Shown here one piece after another: positions 2,771 through 34,257 of a DNA stretch of 64,000 bases (positions are counted from its first letter, which is position 1; each line of letters starts with the position of its first letter). Position numbers and translations under genes: made by a program. Below the pieces are notes generated by a model. It was not told the origin of the DNA. It searched no databases and saw only the letters and a list, made by a program, of their open reading frames with translations. Source of the stretch: an uncultured Chloroflexia bacterium (GTDB taxonomy: Bacteria; Chloroflexota; Dehalococcoidia; UBA2979); assembly GCA_963728205.1 (NCBI GenBank), contig CAVSIV010000006.1, positions 160,001-224,000 on the forward strand, read 5' to 3'.

Positions 2771-3592
2771 TCAGCGAGCCGCGCCACCGCCACCGCCATC
2801 CCCACCGCCCCCATCCCTCCGCGGCCGCTCGAGAAACGCGCGCATCCGCGCTCGCGGCTCGTCGCCCGCATACGCCGCGCGGAACGCCGCGATCCCCGCC
2901 TCGATCGCCTCCGCGAGCGGCAGCCGCTCCCACCGCGCGATCAGCGCCTTCTGCGCCCGCATCGCCCGCGGCCCCGCCGCGAGAATCGCCGACACCCGCC
3001 GCTCCACCGCCGCGTCGAGCCCGCCCGCCGGCGCCACCGCCTCCACGAGCCCCGCCGCCAGCGCCTCGGCCGCCCCGATCGCCTCGCCCGTGAACAGCAG
3101 CTCGCGCGTCTTCCCCCACCCGATCAGCGACGGCAGTAGCGCGGCCTCGATCACCGACGGGATCCCGACCCGCACCTCCGGCATGCCGAACGTCGCGTCC
3201 GCCGACGCTATCCGCACGTCGCAGGCCGCCGCGACCTCGAGTCCCGCGCCCAGGCAGTACCCGCTCACGCTCGCGATCACCGGCACCGGGCATGCGCGGA
3301 TCGCCGCGCACGCCTCGTGCAGCCGCGTGATGAACGCCTCCGCCGACGCCGGCTCCAGCCCCACCATCTCGCCGATGTCCGCCCCGCCGATGAACGCCCG
3401 CTCCCCCGCGCCCGCCAGCACCACGACGCGCAGCGCGTCGTCGCCGGCCAGCCCCGTGAACGCCCCGGCCAGCGCGTCGATCAGCGCCCCGTCGAGCACG
3501 TTGAGCCGCGCGCGCCGGTCGACCGTCACGCGCGCCACGCGGCCCTCCGGGCGCTCCTCGATCTCGACCCGCACCTCGCCGTCGCCCGCCAT
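2771..3592 (-). CDS. Enoyl-CoA hydratase/isomerase
   Basis: AFIGGADI, GYCLGAGLE, FGMPEVRVG motifs. Confidence 0.9.
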   Translation of the reverse strand: MAGDGEVRVEIEERPEGRVARVTVDRRARLNVLDGALIDALAGAFTGLAGDDALRVVVLAGAGERAFIGGADIGEMVGLEPASAEAFITRLHEACAAIRACPVPVIASVSGYCLGAGLEVAAACDVRIASADATFGMPEVRVGIPSVIEAALLPSLIGWGKTRELLFTGEAIGAAEALAAGLVEAVAPAGGLDAAVERRVSAILAAGPRAMRAQKALIARWERLPLAEAIEAGIAAFRAAYAGDEPRARMRAFLERPRRDGGGGDGGGGGAAR

Positions 3593-3808
3593 CTCGCCTC
3601 CCCGCAAGCGACGGCCGACATGCCGCCGATGTCCCGGCGGCGTCCGCCGCCGACGCTGCCCGCGCCGCGCCTGCCCGCAGCGCGCGCATCCTATCCGCCA
3701 TCCCGCGCGGCACGGCGGCGCGGCGGCCCGACGGGGGTGGCCCGGCCGCGCCGCCAGCCCCTACGCTCGATCGGTTGCCGCCGAGCAGGCGGCCCGAGCG
3801 GAGGCCCC

Positions 3809-5020
3809 GTGACCGTCGAGATCCGTCCGATCACCGCCGACGAGCTGGTCGACTACCGGCGCGTGTGGTCCTACGTCTTCGCGGAGAACAGCGTCGACCC
3901 GACCGACGTGAGCGACGACTGGACGCAGCCCGAGTGGACGCTGTGCGCGTTCGTCGACGGCCGCATCGCGTCCACGATGGGCGCCTACCCGTTCACGATG
4001 CGCTGGAACGGCGCGCCGGTCGCGGCCGCCGGCATCACCGCCGTGGGCACGCTCCCCGAGTACCGCCGCCGCGGCCTGCTGCGCAGCGTCATGACGCATG
4101 CGCTGCGCGATCAGCGCGAACGCGGGCAGTCCATCGCGATCCTCTGGGCGAGCATGGGCGCGATCTACCAGCGGTTCGGCTACGGCCTCGCGAGCAGCGT
4201 CGTCCGCTACGACGTCGCGCCGCGCGACGCCGTCTTCCAGCAGCCGGCCGAGCCCACGGGCGGCGTCCACCTCACCCCGCAGGCCGAGGCGCGCGACGTC
4301 ATCGAGGGCGTCTACGCCGAGTACGCCGCGCCGCGCAACGTCATGCTCCACCGCTCGTCCTGGATGTGGGACAACCAGTTCCGCGAGCGCGAGAAGCGAC
4401 GGCGCTACGTCGGCGTCTATCGCGACGGCGACGATCGCCCCTCCGGTTATGTCATCTATTCGACTCGCGAGGAGCCCGTCCACTTCGAGCCGGCGCCCGA
4501 CCAGGTGATGGAGGTGCACGACTTCGTCGCGCTCGACCTCGACGCCTACCGCGGTCTCTGGGCGTACCTGCGGGCGCACGACCTGGTGGCGCGCGTGCAG
4601 ATGGCGGTCCCCGAGGACGACCCCGCGCCGGCGCTGCTGCTCGAGCCGCGCGTGCTCCGCCGCCGCGCCGGCGACGGCATCTGGATGCGCATCGTCGACG
4701 TCGAGCGCGCGCTGCCGCAGCGGCCGTACGGCGACGCCGGTGCGCTCACGCTGCGCGTGCACGACGACGTCTGCGACTGGAACGACGCGACGTTCCGCCT
4801 CGAGACCGACGGCGCGGACACGACGGTCGCGCGCACCGACCGCCACGAGCCCGACCTCGTGCTGCCGGCGCGCAGCCTCTCGATGCTCGCGAGCGGCTAC
4901 GCCTCCGCCACGCACCTCGCGCGCTGGGGCCTCGCCGAGACGCGCGAGTCCGCCTCGCTCCGCCTCGCGGATCGCCTCTTCGCGACGGAGTACCGGGGGT
5001 ACTGCCCGGACGGGTTCTAG
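3809..5020 (+). CDS. Eis-like GNAT acetyltransferase with C-terminal SCP2-like domain
   Basis: VGTLPEYRRRGL acetyl-CoA motif, IYQRFGYG, C-terminal CPDGF; GGAGG RBS before GTG. Confidence 0.88.
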   Translation: MTVEIRPITADELVDYRRVWSYVFAENSVDPTDVSDDWTQPEWTLCAFVDGRIASTMGAYPFTMRWNGAPVAAAGITAVGTLPEYRRRGLLRSVMTHALRDQRERGQSIAILWASMGAIYQRFGYGLASSVVRYDVAPRDAVFQQPAEPTGGVHLTPQAEARDVIEGVYAEYAAPRNVMLHRSSWMWDNQFREREKRRRYVGVYRDGDDRPSGYVIYSTREEPVHFEPAPDQVMEVHDFVALDLDAYRGLWAYLRAHDLVARVQMAVPEDDPAPALLLEPRVLRRRAGDGIWMRIVDVERALPQRPYGDAGALTLRVHDDVCDWNDATFRLETDGADTTVARTDRHEPDLVLPARSLSMLASGYASATHLARWGLAETRESASLRLADRLFATEYRGYCPDGF

Positions 5021-5131: not shown

Positions 5132-6259
5132 CTACCAGCGCGTGATGCCGAGCACGCCCTCGTAGCGATCGAGCATCGCGTCGGCGCGCGCGACCAGCAC
5201 GCCCGCGCCGTGCGTCAGTGCCGCCGCGAGCAGGTCCTCGATCGCCGCGCCGTCCAGCGTCGACGCGTGCTTGCGCGCGTCGCGCGCGACGCCGAAATGC
5301 GTGATCGCGGCCTCGTGCACGAGCAACGTCCCGAGCTGGCCGCGCTCCGCCGCCTCGCGCGCCGCGCCAATCCCGGACACCGCCTGGTCGCGGAAGTCGC
5401 CGGCGAGCCAGCGCTCCGCCTCGCGGTCGGCCATCGCCTGCTGCGCGTCCGCCGCCAGCGCCATCGCCATGTCGGCGATCTCGGCGTCCGTCAGCTGCGG
5501 ATGGATGTCGGGCGTCTGCACGGCGCGCTCCGCGAGGCCCGGCGGCAGCCGCTTCATGAGGTCCGCGCGCGGCTCGTCCGCGCCGGCGATCAGCAGGATG
5601 TCGTCGCGGCCCACGAACTCCTGGAGCCGCGCCGCCTCGTCGGCCGCGAACTGCGTGCGGTGCGCGAGGATCTGCTTCTCAATCCGCGACCGCGAGTGGC
5701 CGCCGGCCGCGCCCTCGCCGGCCGACGCGACGCGCCCTTCGACGTTCGTCCGGCCGTGCGCCGACCCCAGCTCGCTCTCGTCGTGCTGCACGACGGCGGT
5801 CGCCTCGACGACGCCGTAGTGCACGCGCATCGCGTGCATCGCGGTCAGGTCGGTCGCGACCACGGATACCGGCCGGCGCGTGAGCATGTCGAAACGCACC
5901 AGCTCGAAGAGCGCCGGCGTGAGCGCGAGCGCCGCGGAGTTGCGGAACGGCTGCGCCGTTTCGACCTCGACGCGCAGGTCCCCCGCGGCGCTGCCCGCGT
6001 AGAAGAGGCCGCGCGCGCCGGCCGCAAGCCCGCGTTCCATCGCCGCCTCCACCGCCGCCTCGTCGGCCTCTACCGCGCGACGCACGTCGTGCTCGAGCGA
6101 GTGGCCCGCCTCGGCCTCGCGCAGCATCTCCTTCAGCACCTGGCGCGCCGACGGGATGCCGTCGGTGCCCGGCCCAAGGTCCAGCGACACGGTCAGCACG
6201 AGGTGCCCGCCGGCGGTCCGTCCCGGCAGCTCGCGGCAGAGTTGTTCGATGCGGTTCAT
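5132..6259 (-). CDS. baeRF1-family (aeRF1/Pelota-like) protein
   Basis: Three-domain layout with GGHS loop, LLIAG, AVSG...GQLGTLLV and C-terminal GVLGITRW. Confidence 0.7.
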   Translation of the reverse strand: MNRIEQLCRELPGRTAGGHLVLTVSLDLGPGTDGIPSARQVLKEMLREAEAGHSLEHDVRRAVEADEAAVEAAMERGLAAGARGLFYAGSAAGDLRVEVETAQPFRNSAALALTPALFELVRFDMLTRRPVSVVATDLTAMHAMRVHYGVVEATAVVQHDESELGSAHGRTNVEGRVASAGEGAAGGHSRSRIEKQILAHRTQFAADEAARLQEFVGRDDILLIAGADEPRADLMKRLPPGLAERAVQTPDIHPQLTDAEIADMAMALAADAQQAMADREAERWLAGDFRDQAVSGIGAAREAAERGQLGTLLVHEAAITHFGVARDARKHASTLDGAAIEDLLAAALTHGAGVLVARADAMLDRYEGVLGITRW

Positions 6260-6511
6260 CGCGCGCTCCATCTCTCGCCCGGCCGCGACCCGCGCGGCCA
6301 ATCCATCCAACTCCCACGCTACGCGGGCCGATCGAGCGCGGCAGCGGGCGAACGTCAGCCGATGCGCCGGACGTGTGCGTCGCCTCCGCAAGCGGCGGCA
6401 GACACGCCGCCGATGTCGACGGCGGCAACTGCCGCCAATCCAGATCGGCGGCCGACCGCCGCCGATGGAGTCGGCGGCGTATCTGCCGCCGCTTGCGTCT
6501 GATCGCGGAGG

Positions 6512-9500
6512 TCAGCCCCGGTCGTCCGCCTCGTCCAGCGCGAGGTCGGCGCCGTGCCGCAGCGTCCGCACGGCCACCGCCTTCGCCCAGGCGAACCGGC
6601 GCGGGAACCCCGGCTCGCGCGGCTGCGGGCCGTCGAGCGGCGAGAGCAGCGCCTTGAGCGACCGCTGCCGCGGCGCAGTTGGTCCCAGCCGCCGGTAGAC
6701 CGCGTCGGCCAGCGCGCCGGCGGCGTCGGTCGCGACGAACGCGACGTCCGGCGACTCGGCGAGCGTGAGCAGCGCGCCCGGCGCGTCGCCGGCCGCGGCG
6801 AGCGCGCCCGGCGGCGCGCCGGCCTCGCGCAGCGCGTCCACCACCGGCGCCAGCGCCGGCGACGCGACGACGCACACCGCGTTGCCGGCGAGCAGCGGCG
6901 CCGCCAGCCACCACGCCGCATCGGCGCCCGTCGCGTGCACGAGCCCGAGTCCGCGCGCCGGCCCGAAGCGCAGCTCGTTGTGCTGGCCCGCGACCGGCAG
7001 CGTCGGCAGCGCGCGGTCGAGCTCACGGCGCGCCGACTGCGCGGCGTCGAGCAGCCGTCCCGCCGCCACCGCCTCGCCGCGCGCGCCGAGCAGCGCGGCG
7101 GCGCCCTCCACGACCGCGACGCGACGCTCGAACGGGGCGTCCCATCGCTTCGCGAGCTCCGCCGGCAGCGCGGCGGCGACCGGCGCGGTCGCCGCCGGCC
7201 CGGCGCCCGCGGACGGATCGCCCGCGTCGGCGGCGTCGGCCCGCCGCGTGAACGCCCACAGGTAGTCTGGCCCGCCGGCCTTCGGCCCGGTGCCCGACAT
7301 CCACATCCCGCCGAACGGCTCCACGCCGACGCGCGAGCCGGTGATCGACCGATTCACGTAGATGTTGCCGGCCTCGAGCGCGCGCACCGCGCGGGCCACC
7401 GTCCGCGGGCTGCGCGAGAACACGCCCGCCGTCAGCCCGTACTCCGTCGCGTTCGCCAGGCGGTACGCCTGCTGTTCGTCGTCGAAGGGCACGAGCAGCA
7501 GGATCGGCCCGAACAGCTCCTCGGTGGCCGTCGTCCCGCGCGTCGCGCGCTCGGGCGGCAGCGTCGACGATCAGCGGCGCGAGGTTCAGGTTCTCGGCCG
7601 CCGGCGAGGGGCCGGTGAAGCGGTCGAGCAGCACCTCGCACTCGCCCCGCGCGCGGTCGGCGGCGGCGAGCAGCCGCATGTCGCGTCGCGGTCGATCACG
7701 GGGTTCACCTGCGTCGACGGGTCGTCGGCGCGCCCGACGTGCAGGCTGCGCGCGGCCTCGACCAGCCGCCGCCGCAGCCGCGCGAACACCGGCCGCTCGA
7801 CGTAGACGCGCGACGCCGCGGAGCACCGCTGGTTCGCGTGCCCGAACGCCGACGCGAGGATGCCCGACACCGCCTCGTCGAGGTCGGCGTCGGCGAACAC
7901 GATCACCGGGTTCTTGCCGCCCATCTCCGCGACGAGCGCCTTCACGCCCCCGCCGGGCGCGCCCGGCGTGCCGCCCCCGGCGAGCTCGATGCCGGCCACC
8001 GTCGCGTGCAGCGCGGTGCCCACCGCGCGCGAGCCGGTGAACGCGACCATCGCGACCTCCGGGCTCTCCGCCAGCGCGGCGCCCACCGTCTCGCCGCGAC
8101 CCGGCAGCCACGTCACGACGTCGCGCGGCACGCCGGCCTCGTGCAGCAGCGCGACCAGCCGCCCGGCGATCAGCGGCGTCTGCTCCGCGGGCTTGAGGAT
8201 CGCCGTGTTGCCGCACACCAGCGCCGCGCTCGTCATCCCGCACGGGATCGACAGCGAGAAGTTCCACGGCGGGATCACCGCGACGACACCGCGCGGCGCC
8301 AGCGCGTCGCCGTGCCGCGCGAACAGCGCCGCGGCCTGCATCGCGTAGTAGCGAAGGAAGTCGATCGTCTCCTCGACCTCCGCGTAAGCGGCTGCGCGGT
8401 CGCGACCGCCCTCGTGCACGATCCACGCCGCGAACGTGTGGCGGCGCTCCCACAGCAGGTCCGCCGCGCGGCGCAGCGCGGCCGCTCGCTGCGGGGCGGG
8501 CGTCGCGGCCCACGCCGGCAGCGCGGCGCCGGCCACGGCGATCGCGCGCGCCACCCCCGCGCGCCCCGCGAGCTCGACCTCGCCGATCGGCGGCCCGTCG
8601 GGGTGCGACGGGCTGTGCACCGCGACCGTCTCCGCCGCCGGCTCCCGCTCGCCGACGATCACGAGCAGCGTCCGGCCGCCCCACTCCGCGCGCGTCGCCG
8701 CGAGCGCCGCCTCGAACGCCGCGCGGTGCTCGGCGCGGAACCACGGCGCGGACGGCGCGCGCTGGAAGTCGCCCGCGTCGCGCGGCTCCTCGGGCGGCTC
8801 CGGCTCGCCGTGCGGCGGCGGCCGCAGCAGCTCGTCGTCCGATACGCCGCTGCGGCTCTGCAGCAGGAACCCCGCCTGCGACGAGTTCTCGAGCACGCGC
8901 CGCACCAGGTACGCCATCCCCGGCAGCAGCTCGCCGACCGGCACGTAGTCGCGCGCCACCCAGCCGAGACGCGCGAGACCCTCGCTCATGCCCTCGGCGG
9001 TGCGATAGAGCGTCTGGTGCTCGAGCGCCGCCGCCGGCAGCCCGTGCGCCTCGGCCAGCGCATGCGCTACGGCGTGCGACCGGGCGTTGTGGCTGCCGAC
9101 CGCCAGCCGCAGGCTCGGCCACGCGCCGAGCAGCACCGGCAGCACGCGCTCGAACTGCGCGTCGGTGTCGCCCTTGCGCGCGAACACCGGCGACGGCCAC
9201 TTCGCCTCGCGCGCGACAATCGTCTCGTAGTCCCAGTACGCGCCCTTCACGAGCCGCACCTGGAACGGCGCGCCCCGCTCGCGCGCGAAGTCCGCGACCG
9301 CGGCGGCGTGCGTGTCGGCGTCGCGCAGGTACGCCTGCACGACGACCCCGGCGCCCTCCCACGCGCCGAACCGCTCGCCACGCCCGAACGTCGCGCGGAA
9401 CACGTCCCAGGTGAGGTCGCGGTAGGCGTACTGCTCCATGTCGACGGTGATGCCGACCCCGGCGTGCTCCGCCGCCTCGCGAATCGCCTCGAGCGCCGGT

Positions 9501-25874: not shown

Positions 25875-26150
25875 CTGCGCACCTCCCTCGCGGCACGCGC
25901 GCGAGCCTAGCACGCACTCGATCTCGATCTGTCGCGGCGGGACCAATCACGAACGCGCATGTCCGAACGTCGAATCGATGCCTCATAACACATGTAGGCT
26001 CATCCGCCATCACAGGTGAAGTCGAGAACGCCGAAAAATCCGCCACACTCAGCAGCCGCGACCGCACCACATACGGCATTCATCTGCGATGATGCGCGCA
26101 CATTATTCGTCGCACGGCACGTGCCGTGCACTGCTCGGAGGGGACACCAC

Positions 26151-27932
26151 TTGAGCGACTCGACCACCAGATCCTGGACGCGGGCGATGCGCCGCCCCGT
26201 CACGCGTCGCGGCCTGATCCGCGGCTCCGCCACGGCCGGCGCGGGACTCGCCGGCGCGGCGCTGATCGGCTGCGGCAGCAGCAACAACGCGACCAGCACG
26301 CCCGCCCCCGCCGCCACCACCGCGGCCGCGGGCGGCACCGCCTCCGCCTCCGCGACCGCGGCCGCCGGCGGCCCGAAGACGGGCGGCACCTACAAGTACT
26401 TCCTCGCGCTCGACCCGACCACGCTCGACCCGTACGCCAACGCGTCGTACACGGCCAAGGGCTTCGCCGGCTTCGTCTACAGCCGCCTCTACAAGGTCGA
26501 CGCCCAGCCCGGCGCCAACCCGTACGACCAGCCGCCCACCCCGGACCTGGCCGAGAGCGCCGAGAGCCCGGACGGCCAGACCTGGACGGTCAAGCTCAAG
26601 CAGGGCGCGAAGTTCCACAACATCGCGCCGGTCAACGGCCGCGAGGTCACGGCCGCCGACGTGAAGTTCTCGTGGGACCGCCTCAACGACCCGAAGTCGC
26701 CGAACGTCGCGCAGGTGCCGAAGGGCGCGAAGCTCGACGTCGTCGACGACCACACGCTGAAGTTCACGCTCGCGTCTCCCTCGCCGACCTTCCTCGAGTT
26801 CATCGCCGACTCGAACACGCTCTGGATCCAGCCGACCGAGATGGGCGGCGCGGCCGACCCGACGAAGACGCCGATCGGCACCGGCCCCTGGGTGATGTCC
26901 GACTACGCGGTGTCGTCGAAGCTCACCTTCAAGAAGCACCCCGAGTACTTCCTCAAGGGCCAGCCGTACATGGACGGCGTCGAGCTCGCGATCATCCCGG
27001 AGTACGCCAACCAGAAGGCGCAGTTCGAGGCCGGCAGCCTCCACGGCTTCGTGCCGCAGCTCTCCGACGTCCTCGACATGAAGAAGCAGATGACGAAGGC
27101 GCAGTGGGTCGGCTACACCAGCGCCGTCCTCTACATGCTCTACTTCTCGCCCGAGTCCATGGAGCCGAACGCGCCCTGGCGCGACGACCGCTTCCGGCAG
27201 GCCGTGTCGATGGCCATCGACCGCGACGGCTACCTCGACCTCCAGTACAGCGTCAGCGAGCTGAAGAAGGCCGGCCTCGACGTCTCGTCGTCGTGGAACA
27301 ACCTGCTGCCGGATGGCTTCGGCACGCGCTTCTGGCTCGACCCGAAGTCGTCGGACCAGGGCCCCTCGGGCAAGTTCTTCAACTACGACGAGGCCGAGTC
27401 GAAGAAGCTCCTCGCCGCGGTGGGGAACACCGACCAGCCGTTCAAGTACCAGTACACCGGCAACGGGTACGGCAGCGTCTGGGTCCACTACGCCGAGGCG
27501 ATCGGGAACTGGCTCACGGCGGTCGGCCTCAAGCCGCAGACCGAGACCCAGGACTACAGCTCGAAGTACATCACGCAGACGTTCCGCGGGAACTTCACCG
27601 GCGTGACCTTCGGCATCGAGACGCCGTTCCCGGAGGCGGGCAGCTACATCGACCGCATGTTCGGCGACGACCCGGCCAACCACGGCAAGATCCACGACAA
27701 GGACATCGACGCGCAGAACGCGAAGCAGAAGGTCGAGCTCGACCCGAAGCAGCGCACCCAGCAGCTCTACGAGATCCAGCGCATCAACGACCAGCACATG
27801 TACTACGTCCCGACGCCCGGCGGCGGTGGGACGGGCTTCACGTCGTACCAGCCGAACGTGCACGGCCTCCGGCACACGCGCGGCTACGGCTACGCCACCG
27901 AGGAGCTCATGCAGTACTGGCTCGACGCCTAG
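26151..27932 (+). CDS. Orphan family-5 solute-binding lipoprotein with Tat signal
   Basis: TTG start after GGAGG; VTRRGLI, LIGC, KFHNIAPVNGRE, GTGPW. Confidence 0.9.
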   Translation: MSDSTTRSWTRAMRRPVTRRGLIRGSATAGAGLAGAALIGCGSSNNATSTPAPAATTAAAGGTASASATAAAGGPKTGGTYKYFLALDPTTLDPYANASYTAKGFAGFVYSRLYKVDAQPGANPYDQPPTPDLAESAESPDGQTWTVKLKQGAKFHNIAPVNGREVTAADVKFSWDRLNDPKSPNVAQVPKGAKLDVVDDHTLKFTLASPSPTFLEFIADSNTLWIQPTEMGGAADPTKTPIGTGPWVMSDYAVSSKLTFKKHPEYFLKGQPYMDGVELAIIPEYANQKAQFEAGSLHGFVPQLSDVLDMKKQMTKAQWVGYTSAVLYMLYFSPESMEPNAPWRDDRFRQAVSMAIDRDGYLDLQYSVSELKKAGLDVSSSWNNLLPDGFGTRFWLDPKSSDQGPSGKFFNYDEAESKKLLAAVGNTDQPFKYQYTGNGYGSVWVHYAEAIGNWLTAVGLKPQTETQDYSSKYITQTFRGNFTGVTFGIETPFPEAGSYIDRMFGDDPANHGKIHDKDIDAQNAKQKVELDPKQRTQQLYEIQRINDQHMYYVPTPGGGGTGFTSYQPNVHGLRHTRGYGYATEELMQYWLDA

Positions 27933-28067: not shown

Positions 28068-28493
28068 GTGATCGCCTTCGAATGGGCCGTTCAGGAAGCG
28101 ACCGCCGACGCCTTCGCCGCCGTGCTCCACGACGCCGGGATCTCCGTGGAGCGCCGCGAGCGCGACGACGCGGGGGACGACACCGAGACGTTCGCGCTGC
28201 TCGAGCGCGCCGGACTGGCGTTCGACCAGCAGGCGCGCGAGAACCCCCGCCCGAACCGCGTGCTGCTCGTGGGGCGCGCCGCACCCGCGGAGCTCGCCAC
28301 CGCCATCTTCCGCGTCGCCTCGGACGCCTCGCTCGGCGGCGTACTGATCGATGTCGCGAGCGACCCGGTGCAGTGCACCGAGGTCCGCGGCGTCAACGGC
28401 CCCGTGGTCGTGCTCGCGGACGACGACGGCGCACGGCAACTCACGCTGGGGCTCGACGCGATCGGCGCCGCGCTCGAGCGCGCGCACGCCTGA
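28068..28493 (+). CDS. Hypothetical protein
   Basis: AAGGAGG RBS before GTG; host-like codon usage. Confidence 0.6.
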   Translation: MIAFEWAVQEATADAFAAVLHDAGISVERRERDDAGDDTETFALLERAGLAFDQQARENPRPNRVLLVGRAAPAELATAIFRVASDASLGGVLIDVASDPVQCTEVRGVNGPVVVLADDDGARQLTLGLDAIGAALERAHA

Positions 28494-28622: not shown

Positions 28623-29759
28623 ATGGCCATCGAGACTCGCCCCGACCAGCAATCGGACAGCGCGCCAAACCCGTTCGAAGCGCTGATGGCCTACGGCCGT
28701 GAGCGGGGCTACAAGCTCGACTGGCTCCGCCCGGGCGAGACGTTCGGCAGCCGCCTCGAGACCGGCGCCGGCACCGGCGGGCTGCTCCTGCAGGACGTGG
28801 ACCGCGGCCCCTACGGCCAGGTCCCGGAGTGGAGCGACAACCAGACGGGCCGCCCGCGTGGCGCGATCGCGCGACCGACGGCGCCGAAGGTCGGCAACTA
28901 CTCCGTGCGCACGAAGGCCGACATCTGGCTGCGCAACGGCGCGCAGCTCTACGAGGAGGCCGTGCAGCGGCAGTGGTCGTCCGCCGTCGACATCCCGTGG
29001 GAGACGCTCGAGGAGCTGCCCGATGAGATCGAGCGCGCCGAGTGCCAGCTCACGACGTTCCTCACCGAGGTCGAGTTCGTCGCCGGCGACGTCCCCGGCA
29101 AGTGGATCTCCGAGACGTCCCCCGACTACTACGAGCCGCGCATGTACCTGATCACGCAGATCATGGACGAGGCGCGCCACCTCGACGTCTTCCGCAAGCG
29201 CGCCTTCGCCAACGGCGGCGGGCTGCTGGAGCAGGTCAGGACGTCGACGGGCGGCGGCGGCGTGATCGACTCGGCGCGCGACTTCACGGAGATGTCGGCC
29301 CGCCTGCACATCTCGGGCGAGGGCTCGGTGCTGTCGCTGTTCCGCATGGGCGAGCGCATGTCGTACAACGACGCGGAGAAGGCGATCTACCGCCTGGCGG
29401 CGTCGGACGAGTCGCGCCACGTCGCGTTCGGCGTGATGCACCTGCAGTACCTCGCGCAGACCGACCCGGAGCGCAAGGAAGAGATCCACGGCTACCTCGA
29501 CGAGATCGAGATGGCGCTCGCCGCGGCAAGCGACTCGCAGAACCCCGCGGCGCGCGGCACGGTGTCGAACACCGCGCTGTCGATCCTGCTCGGCGGCGGC
29601 GCCGACGCGACGTCGATCCACGAGGGCAACCAGATCCTGCTCGCGGTGCGCCAGCGGCAGGTGAAGGAGTACATCCAGCGCATGAAGGTCGCCGGCTTCG
29701 GCGACCGCTTCGAGAACGGCCGCGCCAACCCGGCGCTGCAGCAGTACCTGTCCGCGTAG
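28623..29759 (+). CDS. Ferritin-like di-iron protein
   Basis: Two ExxH motifs (DEARH, DESRH), QW....DIPW segment; AGGAG RBS. Confidence 0.82.
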   Translation: MAIETRPDQQSDSAPNPFEALMAYGRERGYKLDWLRPGETFGSRLETGAGTGGLLLQDVDRGPYGQVPEWSDNQTGRPRGAIARPTAPKVGNYSVRTKADIWLRNGAQLYEEAVQRQWSSAVDIPWETLEELPDEIERAECQLTTFLTEVEFVAGDVPGKWISETSPDYYEPRMYLITQIMDEARHLDVFRKRAFANGGGLLEQVRTSTGGGGVIDSARDFTEMSARLHISGEGSVLSLFRMGERMSYNDAEKAIYRLAASDESRHVAFGVMHLQYLAQTDPERKEEIHGYLDEIEMALAAASDSQNPAARGTVSNTALSILLGGGADATSIHEGNQILLAVRQRQVKEYIQRMKVAGFGDRFENGRANPALQQYLSA

Positions 29760-30369: not shown

Positions 30370-30578
30370 GCGCCCCTCCTTCGCCCCGGGCACGCCCCGG
30401 GAGGTGCGGTAGTGTCGGGCAGCGGGGAGGGCGGCGCAACGACGGCCGGCCGACCCCCGACGGGGCGGCGCGGACGGGCGCCGCCGTCGCGCGACCGCCG
30501 GGCCCCCCGCATACTGGCCGGGCGGCCAGCGCCGCACGCATCCGGCGCCCGGCCGCCGGCCGCGAAACGCGAGGACCG

Positions 30579-31421
30579 ATGCCACGCGAGCCCGGCTCCG
30601 ACGACGCGACCGTCCTCGCCTACCTGCGCCGGCGCTGGCGACACCGCCTCGACGCCACCACCATCCCGCAGGCTCAGCGGGCGCTCGCGCTCCCGCCGGG
30701 CACCGCCCAGCGCCTGCGCCTCCACGACCACCTCGCCGCCCACCCCGCCGCCCTGCGCACGCTGCGCACCTACGGCGAGTCGCCGCTCTCGCTCACGCTC
30801 ACCGACGACGAGAAGCTCCTCGCCCGCCGCGTGCTCGCGGGCGCCACGCCGGCCGCCGCCGCGCACGACCTCGGCCTGCCGCCCGACACGCGGCGCGCGG
30901 CGCGGCGCGTGCTCCGCCACGCCGGCATCCTCCGCGACGACCGGCCCGCCCCCGGGGCGGACGGCGTCGTCGACGGCGTCGGCCTCAACTTCCACACGAT
31001 CCGCATCGAGGGCGAGTCGACCTTCGGCGTGCACTGAGCGGTCGACTTCCTGCTGTTGGTCAACAGCGAGTACCCCGGCCGCCACCTGAGCATCGAGGAC
31101 GCCTGCGCGCAGTCGCACCGCCGGATGCGCGTCGACGTGTACGACGGCGAGATCGTCGCCACCGACCCGGCGTCGCTCTACCTGCTGCGCGGCGGCACCT
31201 GAGGCACGAACAACCTCTTCTGGTCAGAGGAGCACGCCCGGTCCTGGCTCCAGTCGCACCCCGACGCGCACAGCGAGGGCGCGCGCCTCGCGACCTACTA
31301 CGCGGCGATGCGCGACGCGCGCATCACCCTGCGCAACGTCGAGGACCTGCGCGCCGACTCCGAGACGTACCGCCGCCGCATCCGGCGCGCGCTGCGGCGC
31401 CTCGGGGACGCGACCCCGTAG
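30579..31421 (+). CDS. MerB-like organometal lyase, predicted selenoprotein with Sec153 and Sec208 (280 aa)
   Basis: Frame continues through TGA 31035-31037 (VH-U-AVD) and TGA 31200-31202 (GGT-U-GTNNLFWSEEHARSW) to TAG 31419; GAGGA RBS; SECIS-like hairpins after both TGAs. Confidence 0.85.
31038..31082 (+). promoter_or_regulatory. Bacterial SECIS-like element 1
   Basis: Upper stem GCTGTT-GGTC-AACAGC (31052-31067); lower stem GCGGTCG/CGGCCGC. Confidence 0.8.
31203..31238 (+). promoter_or_regulatory. Bacterial SECIS-like element 2
   Basis: Stem CTCTTCT-GGTC-AGAGGAG (31215-31232), same loop as element 1. Confidence 0.8.
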
Positions 31422-31526
31422 CGCGGGGTTCGTGGTTCGATTGCGCTCACCCCGAACGGCCACGGCCGGCGACGGATGCCCGCGAGCCGCTCCGTTCGCG
31501 CCGAGCGCAGTCGAACCGCGGGCCCG

Positions 31527-33317
31527 TCACGCCGGCTGCGCCAGCGCGTCGTCCTGCACCGGCGGCGAGCGGAAGCGGCCCGCGACGTAGTCGACGCCCA
31601 GCGCCAGCGCGAGCAGCACGAACGGCGCCGCGCCAATCACCCCGCGCGCGCCCACCGCTCGCGCCGCCGCGCCGAGCACCAGCAGCGGCACGATCGCCAG
31701 CCCGTCCTTCAGCATCCCCATCACCGCGAACACCCGGCCCTGCAGCGCCGCCGGCACCGCGCGCCCCACGTACGTCTGCGCCGCCGCTGCCGCCAGCGTG
31801 ATGCCGAACCCCAGCGGGATCGAGAGCAGCGCCGCCACCTCGAGCTCGTGCGTGATGCCCGGCCAGTCCTCCACCAGCCACGGCAGCAGGTGCTGCGTCA
31901 GCGGCTGCACCGCCCCCAGCCCCACCATCGCCGCCGCCGCCAGCGAGAAGCCCACCGCCGCCGTCATGCGCTCGCCGGCCAGCGCGATCGCCTTCGGCGC
32001 GACCGCCAGCGCCGCCAGCAGCCCGATCGCCGCCGGCATGAAGACGTACAGCGTGAGCGTCGGGTCGATGTGCAGCACCTCGTGCACGTACGCCGGCCCG
32101 AGCATCCCCAGCACCACGCCGACCGTGCTCGCGAGCCCCGCCAGCAGCAGCATCCACAGCACACGACGCTCGCCGGCCAGCCAGCGCAGCGCCTCGCCGG
32201 TGTCGGCGCCCAGCCGCATCGTGCCGGCCCGCGCGCGCGTCTCGCGCGGCGGCGTCAGCTCGAAGACGCGCGTGAACGCGAGGATGAACAGCACCCCCGC
32301 GAAGGTCACCACCGGCTCCACGCCGAAGCGACGCACCAGCAGCGGCGCCAGCGCCGCCTTGCCCAGCACCTCGCCCGTCGACGACGCCAGCGACATGAAC
32401 GAGTTCGCCGACGCCAGCTCCTCGGCGTCCGCCACCAGCGGCACCGCCGACGCCTCCGACGGCTGCGAGACCTGGTGCAGCGTGCGCACCAGGAAGATGA
32501 TCGCGAGCAGCGACGCGAACCCCGTGCCGAGCAGCGCCGGCACCGCGAAGCACAGCAGGCCCATCGCGACGTAGGCGCCGGCCAGCGCCACGCGCTTCGG
32601 CAGCACGTCGGCCACGGCGCCGCCGTAGAGCCCGAGCAGCACGCCCGGCAGCAGGTACGCCGTGCCCACGAGCGCCGCGTCGAACGCCGTGCCCCCGCGC
32701 CGCACCACCGCGATCAGCGTGCCGTAGAGCAGCGCCTGCAGCGCCATGTCCGTGAGGAAGCGCGACGCCAGCAGCGCCTGGAAGTGCACGTCGAACGCCA
32801 GCGACCCGGGGGGCACCGTGAACCAGAGGATGCGAAAGAGCCGGCGCTGACCGCGGTTCACCGCGCGGTCGAGCCGCGCCGCCTGGCGGATCAGCCGCGG
32901 GCGCGTCGACGCCGACGCCCGCTGCAGCAGCCGTACCGCACCGCGCACGCGGCCCTCGGTCTCGCGCGCCGCCTGCTGCACCTGCGCCGGCGTGCCGGCG
33001 TGCGCCACGCGCATCAGCCGGTCGCCGGCGTCGCGCAGCAGCTGCTCGGCGTCGCGGCCGGCGCCGCGCACCGGGTCGGGCACCGCGCCCTCGCCCAGGC
33101 GGCGCAGGTGGTCGGCCGTCGCGCGCAGGCTGCGCTCGAGGTCGGCGGAGGCGCGGCGCACCACGTCCGGCGTCGCCGACGACGACGCCGCGGTCAGCTC
33201 CGCGCGCGCCAGGCGCAGCACGACCTCCAGCTCGACGAGCGTCTCGTCGAGCGCGGCCTCGGTCTCGGCGAGCGACCGGTCCGGCGTCGCGCGGTCGCGA
33301 CGGCGCTCGTCCTGCAT
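31527..33317 (-). CDS. MFS transporter with long N-terminal helical extension
   Basis: GGAVADVLPKR, VPAALQGRVF, about 12 TM helices after about 160 soluble residues; AAGGAG RBS. Confidence 0.85.
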   Translation of the reverse strand: MQDERRRDRATPDRSLAETEAALDETLVELEVVLRLARAELTAASSSATPDVVRRASADLERSLRATADHLRRLGEGAVPDPVRGAGRDAEQLLRDAGDRLMRVAHAGTPAQVQQAARETEGRVRGAVRLLQRASASTRPRLIRQAARLDRAVNRGQRRLFRILWFTVPPGSLAFDVHFQALLASRFLTDMALQALLYGTLIAVVRRGGTAFDAALVGTAYLLPGVLLGLYGGAVADVLPKRVALAGAYVAMGLLCFAVPALLGTGFASLLAIIFLVRTLHQVSQPSEASAVPLVADAEELASANSFMSLASSTGEVLGKAALAPLLVRRFGVEPVVTFAGVLFILAFTRVFELTPPRETRARAGTMRLGADTGEALRWLAGERRVLWMLLLAGLASTVGVVLGMLGPAYVHEVLHIDPTLTLYVFMPAAIGLLAALAVAPKAIALAGERMTAAVGFSLAAAAMVGLGAVQPLTQHLLPWLVEDWPGITHELEVAALLSIPLGFGITLAAAAAQTYVGRAVPAALQGRVFAVMGMLKDGLAIVPLLVLGAAARAVGARGVIGAAPFVLLALALGVDYVAGRFRSPPVQDDALAQPA

Positions 33318-33495
33318 GCGTGCGGGCTCCTTGCGGCTCTCCCCGCAGGGTAGCCGAGCCCGTCGCGCCCGCCCGCCGCCGTTCGCCCTACCGCCCGGGT
33401 GACGAACGGCGTGCCGCCGCCGCGCGACACCGCACCGCCGGCCTGGCGGGCGCCCCGCCGCGGGTGCGACGAGGTGCTGTGCTACCGTCGTCGCC

Positions 33496-34257
33496 ATGGC
33501 GGAACCGACGACCGACGCCCCGCTCGCGCCGGCCTACCGGCACCTCGCGCTGCCCGCGCCGCCGCCCGGCCGCCCCTACGTGATCGTGAACATGGTGATG
33601 TCCGCCGACGGCCGCGTCGTCGTCGAGGACACCGAGCGCGGCCTCGGCTCCCCCACCGACCAGCGCCTGATGCGCGAGCTGCGCTCGCTCGCCGACGTCG
33701 TCCTCGACGGCGCCGGCACCTTCCGCAAGAGCGGCTCGTCGTCGCGCCTGAACGACCCGGAGCTCGAGGCCGCGCGCGTCGCCGCCGGCCGCCCGCGCGT
33801 GCCCCTCGCCGCCGTGATCACCGCCAGCGGCGCGCTGCCGCTCGACCGCGCCTTCTTCACCGCCGACGACTTCGAGGGCGTGGTCTACGTGAGCGAGTCC
33901 GCGCCCGCGGAGCGCCGCCGCGCGCTGGAGGCGACCGGCCGCCGCGTCTTCGCGATGCCGGACGCCGACCCGCTGCCCTGGGTGCTCGCGCACATGCGCC
34001 GCGCGCTCGACGCGCGCGTGCTGCTCGTCGAGGGCGGCCCCTCCACCAACGGCGGCCTCTTCGACGCCGGCCTGATCGACGAGTACTTCCTGACGCTCGC
34101 CCCGCGCATCGTCGGCGGCCGCGACGCGCTGCCGGCCGTGCGCTCTGCGCGCGAGCGGTCGATGGACGACGTCACGCAGCTGGCGCTGGTGTCCGCGGTG
34201 CCGAACCCGGAGACGGGCGAGGTCTACCTGCGGTACCGCGTGCGCCGAGAGGGCTGA
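33496..34257 (+). CDS. RibD C-terminal/DHFR-like reductase
   Basis: NMVMSADG, GAGT, LLVEGGP, GLIDEYFLTLAP. Confidence 0.88.
   Translation: MAEPTTDAPLAPAYRHLALPAPPPGRPYVIVNMVMSADGRVVVEDTERGLGSPTDQRLMRELRSLADVVLDGAGTFRKSGSSSRLNDPELEAARVAAGRPRVPLAAVITASGALPLDRAFFTADDFEGVVYVSESAPAERRRALEATGRRVFAMPDADPLPWVLAHMRRALDARVLLVEGGPSTNGGLFDAGLIDEYFLTLAPRIVGGRDALPAVRSARERSMDDVTQLALVSAVPNPETGEVYLRYRVRREG

Follow-up and report, generated by a model that had tools for sequence, protein, structure and literature searches.

Does a frame that gene callers end at an in-frame TGA encode a complete MerB-like protein with selenocysteine (Sec) in place of both catalytic cysteines? The question is raised by positions 30579..31421 (+ strand) of a stretch of DNA from an uncultured Chloroflexia bacterium, 64,000 nucleotides (nt) long and with a G+C content of 72.7%, which we refer to as the window (G000:C6:160001-224000). 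Its source genome, G000, comprises 4.1 Mb in 6 contigs, with a completeness of 89% and a contamination of 5.6%. To our knowledge, no enzyme other than MerB is dedicated to cleaving the carbon-mercury (C-Hg) bond of methylmercury. A first-pass annotation of the window had proposed that the frame continues through two TGA codons to a TAG, that its product is MerB-like and that both TGAs fall on the catalytic cysteine positions, and our results bear out all three proposals. Taken together, our data indicate that the locus is probably a genuine double-Sec selenoprotein gene whose product has a MerB fold and most likely a MerB-like mechanism, which is the best explanation overall.

The full coding sequence occupies 30579..31421 (+) and specifies 280 amino acids (aa) followed by TAG. 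It starts with ATG at 30579, passes TGA at 31035-31037 (codon 153) and again at 31200-31202 (codon 208), and ends with TAG at 31419-31421. With TGA read as Sec (U), the translation has 280 residues including U153 and U208 and contains the strings ...FGVH-U-AVDFLL..., ...EDACAQS... and ...GGT-U-GTNNLFWSEEHARSW.... The G+C content at third codon positions (GC3) of this frame is 0.91-0.99 over about 30650-31300, at a second-position G+C of about 0.5, and the signal is continuous through both TGAs, where it remains near 0.98. A possible Shine-Dalgarno sequence, GAGGA (30571..30575, +), can be read 3 nt before the ATG, which is a short spacing. Translation, GC3, the Pfam MerB match, TGA at both sites in 32 of 34 homologous loci and an orthologue alignment covering residues ~7 to ~275 agree on this extent, and the hidden 280-aa read-through gene is confirmed far beyond chance. 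A genome-wide reassignment of TGA (codes 4/25) was rejected because TGA is an ordinary stop here, terminating 11 of the window's 30 confident long open reading frames (ORFs; the others end in TAG, 18, or TAA, 1), the adjacent MFS and RibD_C genes being among the 11. The share of TAG among these stops (18/30) seems unusual for a genome of 73% G+C. The TGA codons are covered by metagenome contigs of three studies; one contig, with 92% identity to the window, extends over both, and among the matches listed there was no difference at 31035-31037 or 31200-31202. The sequencing runs listed as matching comprise six DNA runs, all with small shares, and no RNA run.

The codon states of homologues at the two sites point in the same direction. 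The gene is present in 5 of 61 related genomes, including G000. A relative of the same genus (G003), whose protein is 60% identical, has TGA at both sites, and a more distant one (G034, 46% identical) has Cys at both. A scan of one genome per species recovered 40 loci, of which 34 span both sites: TGA stands at each site in 32 of them, a single locus has Cys at each, and another combines Cys at site 1 with TGA at site 2, so that homologues carry either Cys or TGA at positions 153 and 208, in line with what the first-pass annotation had named as a check. In the 32 TGA/TGA loci the frames remain open and the sequence beyond the TGAs is conserved. The six partial loci show TGA (5) or Cys (1) at site 2. 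Record titles place the 40 loci in Chloroflexota (Dehalococcoidia, SAR202, Anaerolineae), Acidobacteriota, Marinimicrobia, Caldithrix, Bacteroidota/Cytophagia, Deferribacteres and Armatimonadetes; the scan used peptide patterns derived from a 5-sequence alignment and is biased to close relatives and to the site-2 motif. When 400 other genomes, drawn evenly from the phylum, were scanned with a profile and without peptide patterns, three proved to carry the family, two with two TGAs and one with one.

Protein databases hold the same family largely in truncated form. Among 1.84 billion representative proteins there were 68 matches, of which 16 terminate directly ahead of position 153, another 16 carry Cys153 but terminate directly ahead of position 208, 14 are complete Cys/Cys proteins and 21 are fragments or divergent paralogues; the last has Trp at both sites and is probably the product of a caller reading TGA as Trp. 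Public records label family members "hypothetical protein", with lengths of 150 or 210 residues. For three loci (L052, L056 and L060), 3 or 4 in-frame TGAs are tabulated within the aligned span, and the additional ones may represent a third Sec, upstream non-coding sequence or a read-through TGA stop. G032 carries a distant MerB-like gene with Cys at site 1 and TGA at site 2, which is a further Sec-containing MerB-like lineage. This shorter gene (L027:1504-2085, +) has Cys...Glu at site 1 (QCAFES), TGA at site 2 (…YR-U-AGMNFFRSEEHARNW…) and a CUUCC-GGUC-GGAAG hairpin after the site-2 TGA.

Each UGA of the window gene is followed by a hairpin that we interpret as a SECIS element (Sec insertion sequence). 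Element 1 (31052..31067, +) has a 6-bp stem and a GGUC tetraloop, GCUGUU-GGUC-AACAGC, with the loop starting 20 nt after the UGA. Element 2 (31215..31232, +) has a 7-bp scored stem and again a GGUC tetraloop, CCUCUUCU-GGUC-AGAGGAGG, with the loop starting 19 nt after the UGA. The apical loop of the Escherichia coli fdhF SECIS is GGUC as well. Both elements were defined by covariation and by their minimum free energy (MFE) structure. Base-pair changes are fully compensatory in both hairpins, over 33 homologous sequences at site 1 and 40 at site 2. Among the 32 distinct sequences of site 1, 98.4% of cells are paired, and the bases found at pair 22-29 are U-A (24), C-G (5) and G-C (3). At site 2, 100% of cells are paired across 38 distinct sequences, the loop-closing pair 22-27 being U-A in 23, C-G in 14 and A-U in one, and the basal pair 16-33 being C-G in 37 and U-A in one. 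With slid partners as controls, 16-70% (site 1) and 51-67% (site 2) of cells were paired, and none of 500 shuffles at either site reached the observed covariation score. The compensating bases at site 1 alter amino acids (LLLVNS / LLVVTS / LLLVSS), and compensation at site 2 includes the synonymous third base of a Ser codon. In addition, 44 of the 45 nt after the first TGA are identical between G000 and G003, though the proteins are 60% identical.

Published criteria for bacterial SECIS (bSECIS) elements are a loop of 3-9 nt, a stem of 4-16 bp, a G in the first two loop positions, a distance of 16-37 nt from the UGA and an MFE of ≤ -7.5 kcal/mol (PMC13188914). Both hairpins satisfy these with their GGUC loops, stems of 6 and 7 bp and spacings of 20 and 19 nt. 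The MFE of a 45-nt segment including the hairpin is -12.5 kcal/mol at site 1 and -10.6 kcal/mol at site 2; the upper hairpins by themselves reach -6.9 and -7.1, respectively. These data strongly support that each UGA has its own in-frame SECIS.

The machinery for Sec insertion was searched in G000, where the first-pass annotation had suggested looking for selA, selB, selC and selD. Three of the four were found outright: selC, with tRNA-Sec scoring 73.8 bits, above cutoff, and carrying the anticodon TCA, selB (309.9 bits, above cutoff) and selD (363.6 bits, above cutoff); selA also scored above its cutoff, with an apparent 1-nt frameshift that is weighed below. The selD gene itself encodes a selenoprotein, with an in-frame TGA in a canonical UxxK motif, ...SCAG-U-AGK... 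(L001:1501-2439, -, equal to G000:C4:155115-156053). Moreover, tRNA-Sec and SelB are above their cutoffs in 5 of 5 other family-holding genomes, four with Sec at both sites and one with Cys at both. We hold with very high confidence that the family is a two-Sec selenoprotein family; for the window copy this confidence is tempered by the selA frame switch.

The product combines an N-terminal region with a catalytic core of the MerB fold. Residues 139-256 (30993..31346, +) form the core, as delimited by the Pfam MerB match, Foldseek and VIA-align. The Pfam MerB family (PF03243) matches residues 139-241 with 34.8 bits, its gathering score being 27. Of the proteins with a solved structure, the one that matches best in sequence is MerB2 of Bacillus megaterium (5C17), with an E value of 0.002 for the single sequence and 8e-13 for the family profile; the family profile matches E. 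coli MerB with an E value of 3e-4. The profile alignment equates U153 with Cys96, D156 with Asp99, C176 with Cys117 and U208 with Cys159 in E. coli MerB numbering. Thus, Sec codon 153 (UGA, 31035..31037, +) corresponds to the cysteine of ...YAWC96ALD99... and is TGA in 32/34 and Cys in 2/34 loci, and Sec codon 208 (UGA, 31200..31202, +) corresponds to that of ...SFC159C... and is TGA in 38/40 and Cys in 2/40 loci. Asp codon 156 (GAC, 31044..31046, +) corresponds to the proton donor Asp99 and Cys codon 176 (TGC, 31104..31106, +) to the structural Cys117, both being invariant in two family alignments. In the 38-row family alignment, the invariant positions are D156, kept in 38 of 38 members, C176, both Sec/Cys positions, R45, E78 and F214. 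The residue after U208 is Gly or Ala, without an equivalent of Cys160. The Cys96/Asp99/Cys117/Cys159 signature as written is matched only in part, with Asp99 and Cys117 present and the other two positions being TGA (Sec); Sec at these positions is chemically analogous to Cys.

Structure prediction agrees with the sequence alignments. An AlphaFold2 model computed from the 38-sequence family alignment has a predicted local distance difference test score (pLDDT) of 93.4 and a predicted template modelling score (pTM) of 0.90, and the fold matches rest on this predicted model. In a Foldseek search of the PDB, the top 11 matches were all MerB or MerB2 with probability 1.00, and the next match had an E value of 0.08. 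VIA-align gave its best superposition with MerB 3f0o_B (chain 72-204; Z 14.3, root-mean-square deviation (rmsd) 2.2 Å over 119 residues), and across MerB structures the values were Z 10.1-14.3 and rmsd 2.2-2.8 Å over 115-122 residues. A two-Sec protein of the MerB fold is thereby strongly supported.

The regions flanking the core are consistent with the extended helical, helix-turn-helix-like N-terminus and the C-terminal tail that had been described from the sequence. Residues 1-138 (30579..30992, +) comprise a helical extension (~1-70) and a winged-helix-like domain (~71-138), delimited by model helices H7-20 through H102-114, VIA-align and the profile alignment; no Pfam family matches this region. 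Conserved residues of the ~70-residue extension in the family are W20, R45, W65 and E78. Residues 71-138 superpose on MarR/ArsR-type winged helices with middling VIA-align scores (Z 6.8-7.9), and profile positions 94-150 align with N-terminal residues 39-87 of MerB2, the alignment running through the winged-helix-like domain and the core. The tail, residues 257-280 (31347..31418, +), is helical in the model (H254-259, H261-275) and confined to the window's clade, as in the 38-sequence alignment it is common only to L029, L030 and P0002 and most other members end at about residue 245. The window copy has no signal sequence and looks cytoplasmic.

How does this protein relate to known systems? 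Like MerB (E. coli plasmid R831b; 3F0O/3F0P/1S6L), it has the core fold, the Pfam domain, the four signature positions in order and a preceding winged-helix-like domain, and relatives of its gene adjoin merR-type, merB and merA-like genes. Unlike MerB, it has Sec as both metal ligands, no Cys160 equivalent and, in the family, ~70 extra N-terminal residues; the window copy stands outside a mer operon, scores far under the curated cutoffs and has no MerA above cutoff in its genome. MerB2 (5C17) has Cys at both ligand positions and Ser for Asp99, whereas the double-Sec family has Sec at both and an invariant Asp. The closest parallel among selenoproteins is SaoL (NF040728), likewise a MerB homologue whose database records stop short at UGA; it carries Sec where MerB has Cys159 and retains the Asp. 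As Haft & Gwadz describe it (bioRxiv 10.1101/2022.07.06.499078), SaoL is ~213 aa long, its only Sec forms part of a Cys-Sec dipeptide at the Cys159 position, position 96 is Cys, and it occurs in strict anaerobes in a nine-gene SAO locus. In contrast, the double-Sec protein has two Sec, no CU dipeptide (T-U-G or G-U-A instead), 280 aa and a different N-terminus, and the family occurs by record titles in Chloroflexota, Acidobacteriota, Marinimicrobia, Bacteroidota and others. The SaoL motif, a single Sec as CU with Cys at 96, was matched in none of the 32 TGA/TGA loci, and the SaoL model scores 17.5 bits against a cutoff of 140. The window copy also lies outside a SAO locus (SaoB/P/T/X/C/E...), its neighbours being SBP_bac_5, ferritin-like, DinB_2, MFS and RibD_C genes; no Sao model matched the four flanking proteins searched with NCBIfam, the remaining neighbour ORFs having been scanned with Pfam only.

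The family is thus neither canonical MerB, as it departs from the Cys signature and scores under the curated cutoffs, nor SaoL, from which it is set apart by model score, motif and locus. It is a distinct, widespread branch of the MerB superfamily with a diselenol active site, and the earlier suggestion of a distinct family has held up. Apart from the MerB and SaoL models, NCBIfam release 20.0 gave no match at E ≤ 10 and no model claims the protein; on this ground, membership in MbdU or other listed double selenoproteins was rejected. A 2026 inventory of 119 selenoprotein families and subfamilies has SaoL as its sole MerB-like entry, and the double-Sec family is absent from it (PMC13188914). 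The SaoL preprint describes Sec as unknown in characterised mercury-resistance families (bioRxiv 10.1101/2022.07.06.499078). We found no MerB-type protein with two Sec in the literature, in which SaoL was the one MerB-like selenoprotein that we encountered; supplementary files (including the SaoL preprint alignments) and subscription-only papers, which lay outside the search, may bear on this point.

What such a protein would do can be proposed by analogy. At neutral pH selenolates carry no proton, and their affinity for soft metals exceeds that of thiolates. In MerB, R-Hg+ is ligated by two thiolates, the carbon receives a proton from Asp99 and departs as R-H, and both ligands retain Hg(II) until it is handed on (PMC10114901). 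In the double-Sec protein, SelB and Sec-tRNA(Sec) would insert Sec at 153 and 208 in place of termination, as read from the gene's anatomy, insertion at both UGAs being expected from the in-frame SECIS that lies 19-20 nt downstream of each. An organometal cation, CH3Hg+ for instance, would then be bound through its metal by the two selenolates, which would weaken the carbon-metal bond, Asp156 would protonate the carbon and the hydrocarbon would leave, and the diselenolate would hold the metal until it was taken up by a partner with a thiol or selenol. A redoxin partner, or the Sec-bearing reductase candidate of locus L041, might strip the metal or re-reduce a diselenide; the window copy has no redoxin partner nearby. 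The diselenolate could offer better capture and bond activation at trace substrate at the price of hindered product release. The invariant Asp argues for protonolysis over mere binding, and a lyase function would be the best-supported mechanism. On balance we lean slightly towards the protein being a carbon-metal lyase, and an organomercurial as its substrate is a further step that we propose with less assurance than we would need to favour it.

The gene context of relatives was surveyed from 147 ORFs at 20 of the 34 two-site loci, picked for having flanks. A TlpA/ResA-like redoxin gene lies directly upstream on the same strand at 9 of the 20 loci and within ~3 kb at 2 more; the redoxins contain a CxPC motif, and their N-terminus is hydrophobic. 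The pair of redoxin and MerB-like genes is preceded by genes for an ECF sigma factor and a zf-HC2 anti-sigma factor at three loci (L034, L047, L057), and by genes for a BlaI-like repressor and a BlaR1/M56-like sensor-protease at three others (L036, L045, L050), which suggests that an envelope signal controls this exported-type unit of redoxin and double-Sec genes. The MerB-like proteins at redoxin loci start with hydrophobic segments, which the window protein lacks and which are probably signal-like. Mer-type neighbours (MerB, MerR-type or MerA-like) occur within ~4 kb at 8 of the 20 loci. They include MerB paralogues near the curated cutoff of 193, scoring 179 at L041, 160 at L053 and 118 at L034, and MerR-type regulators at L041, L048 and L054.

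Several observations weigh against a functional double-Sec lyase gene, and we take them here together with the explanations that compete with it. As to the RNA, single-sequence folding of the 60 nt after each TGA was no better than shuffles (z -1.44 and +0.87), the 60-nt MFE structure at site 2 did not select the conserved hairpin, and it was comparative analysis that revealed the hairpins; an Rfam scan of 30500-31500 at E ≤ 10 gave three chance-level matches and no SECIS family, a result of little weight in view of the diversity of bacterial SECIS elements. Since the loci were found with a peptide pattern that overlaps the site-2 hairpin, sequence conservation there is partly ascertainment, although the synonymous covariation is not. 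The unremarkable single-sequence folding, together with callers that stop at 31035 and database proteins that are mostly truncated, could suggest that the TGAs are plain stops or sequencing errors and that the coding look downstream is chance or a pseudogene. We regard this as extremely improbable, given open frames and conserved protein beyond TGA/TGA in 32 of 34 loci of several phyla, Cys at exactly both TGA positions in other members, covariation of both hairpins, and metagenome contigs of other studies that span both codons without a difference among the matches listed. Pseudogene and sequencing error were accordingly rejected on the 32/34 TGA/TGA loci and the hairpin covariation at both sites. 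The main caveat is selA. In G000 it scores 408.5 bits, above cutoff, with the match split over two frames (model positions 1-128 and 117-454), and the switch falls in a short CT-rich stretch, like a 1-nt indel (L004 about 2440-2450, -, equal to G000:C2 about 333040-333050). If the frameshift is real, the strain could not make Sec, and the window gene could be a relic of a real family, with translation ending at codon 153 to leave a 152-residue fragment. A relic does occur among the relatives: G033, of the same family as the source organism, has a clearly dead copy (G033:C2 about 146311-146800) that keeps TGA at site 1 and then loses the frame. That copy (L026/L028) is cut by or adjoins a 351-aa transposase-like ORF (L026 397-1452). 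For the window gene we consider this quite unlikely, since in G000 nothing has damaged its ORF, either SECIS hairpin or the Sec codon of selD, GC3 shows no decay beyond the TGAs, and selA is in a single frame in four relatives (536-545 bits); the single-base indel may be an error of the 6-contig assembly, which is 89% complete with 5.6% contamination.

Further difficulties are the following. The curated NCBIfam MerB models NF009710 and NF033555 score 21.7 against 193 bits and 20.0 against 200 bits, far under their cutoffs. The global Foldseek superposition is poor (TM 0.33/0.44, rmsd ~12.8 Å), the good fit being limited to the catalytic core. No mer genes were found among the window ORFs at 22.6-37.5 kb, MerA above cutoff is absent from the 89%-complete genome (best match 330.9 against 454), and the gene context is not conserved in the window's clade (G003, G034). 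The absence of mer and sao genes nearby had already been remarked on in the first-pass annotation and stands for the scanned window ORFs, although relatives often adjoin mer-type genes. Hg-Se bonds are very strong, and turnover may therefore be slow because they hamper release from the diselenolate. The main rival is a MerB-fold double-Sec protein that is no lyase, serving either as a redox diselenide/diselenol couple or as a very high-affinity trap or chaperone for metals and metalloids (Hg(II), Cu, As, Te, Se), and serviced by a thiol-disulfide oxidoreductase. The redoxins upstream at 9 of 20 loci fit such a role, as does control by ECF sigma/anti-sigma or BlaI/BlaR1-like genes, which is typical of extracytoplasmic redox or stress systems. 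Prokaryotic selenoproteins are mostly redox proteins (PMC13188914), and a D99S mutant of MerB is reported to bind Cu(II) via C96 and C159 (PMC10114901). Nevertheless, it is not obvious why a protein that is purely a redox couple or trap should require the proton-donating Asp that is invariant in 38 of 38 members, the family retains the MerB fold and the four signature positions, and the mer-type neighbours at 8 of 20 loci include near-canonical MerB paralogues; the redoxin is equally compatible with a lyase, where it would keep the selenols reduced or remove the metal product. We therefore judge the redox or metal-trapping role improbable and retain the double-Sec MerB-like gene with a putative lyase activity as the preferred reading.

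If this reading is right, several consequences follow. Surveys of demethylation potential in the environment seek predicted proteins with Cys at MerB positions 96 and 159, and one such survey defines MerB by the signature Cys96, Asp99, Cys117 and Cys159 (PMC8261052). Such Cys-based surveys cannot see a family in which both ligands are Sec and whose members are filed as short hypothetical proteins; as gene callers truncate double-Sec genes, none of them would have been picked up where the potential for methylmercury demethylation was surveyed through merB. A curated hidden Markov model with a reference sequence would enable annotation pipelines to call them at full length. For selenium biology, the family presents Sec at both metal ligands of one active site, each with its own covarying in-ORF SECIS, and for chemistry it provides a natural experiment on the question whether protonolytic Hg-C cleavage is accelerated or poisoned by selenolates. 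We raise more speculatively, as an idea we hold to be doubtful, that the family represents an overlooked route, dependent on selenium, by which organomercury or other organometals are detoxified in lineages that abound in soil, sediment and ocean (Acidobacteriota, Chloroflexota with SAR202, Marinimicrobia and Bacteroidota). In this route, diselenolates would cleave the carbon-metal bonds of substrates present in traces, many Gram-negative members would act outside the cytoplasm with a TlpA-like redoxin, and at least one lineage would have a MerA-like reductase bearing Sec in its redox-active motif.

In the window, the double-Sec gene stands alone, between a divergent DinB_2-like gene and a convergent MFS gene. 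The upstream side holds an SBP_bac_5 gene (26016-27932, +), a strongly coding ORF without a Pfam family (28068-28493, +) and a ferritin-like gene, also strongly coding and without a Pfam family (28623-29759, +), which has a weak sub-cutoff match to R2-like ligand-binding oxidases (NF006200, E 1.3e-8); GC3 is 0.82-1.00 over the latter two ORFs. The divergent DinB_2/mycothiol-S-transferase-like gene (29881 to about 30370, -) scores 29.2 bits against a cutoff of 24.8. Downstream lie the convergent MFS transporter gene (31527-33497, -) and a RibD_C reductase gene (33496-34257, +).

Two loci of relatives show additional in-frame TGAs in neighbouring genes. At L041, from an Anaerolineae metagenome-assembled genome, the order is MerR, MerB, DsbD_TM, the double-Sec gene and a MerA-like reductase. 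This MerA-like/dihydrolipoyl-dehydrogenase-like flavoprotein (ORF about 5298-6695, +) has a TGA at L041:5418-5420, at the first Cys position of the redox-active CxxxxC motif (…GGT-U-VNEGC-IPTK…), and hairpins after this TGA show no clear fit to bSECIS spacing; the flavoprotein may be a Sec-containing reductase. At L048, two ORFs lie between the MerR-type and double-Sec genes, a glutaredoxin-like ORF (about 3200-3450, +) with an in-frame TGA within a U-H-F-C motif, followed by a MerA C-terminal fragment (3446-3952, +) that covers model positions 334-465 and ends in a Cys-Cys pair, with an aquaporin (MIP) gene next.

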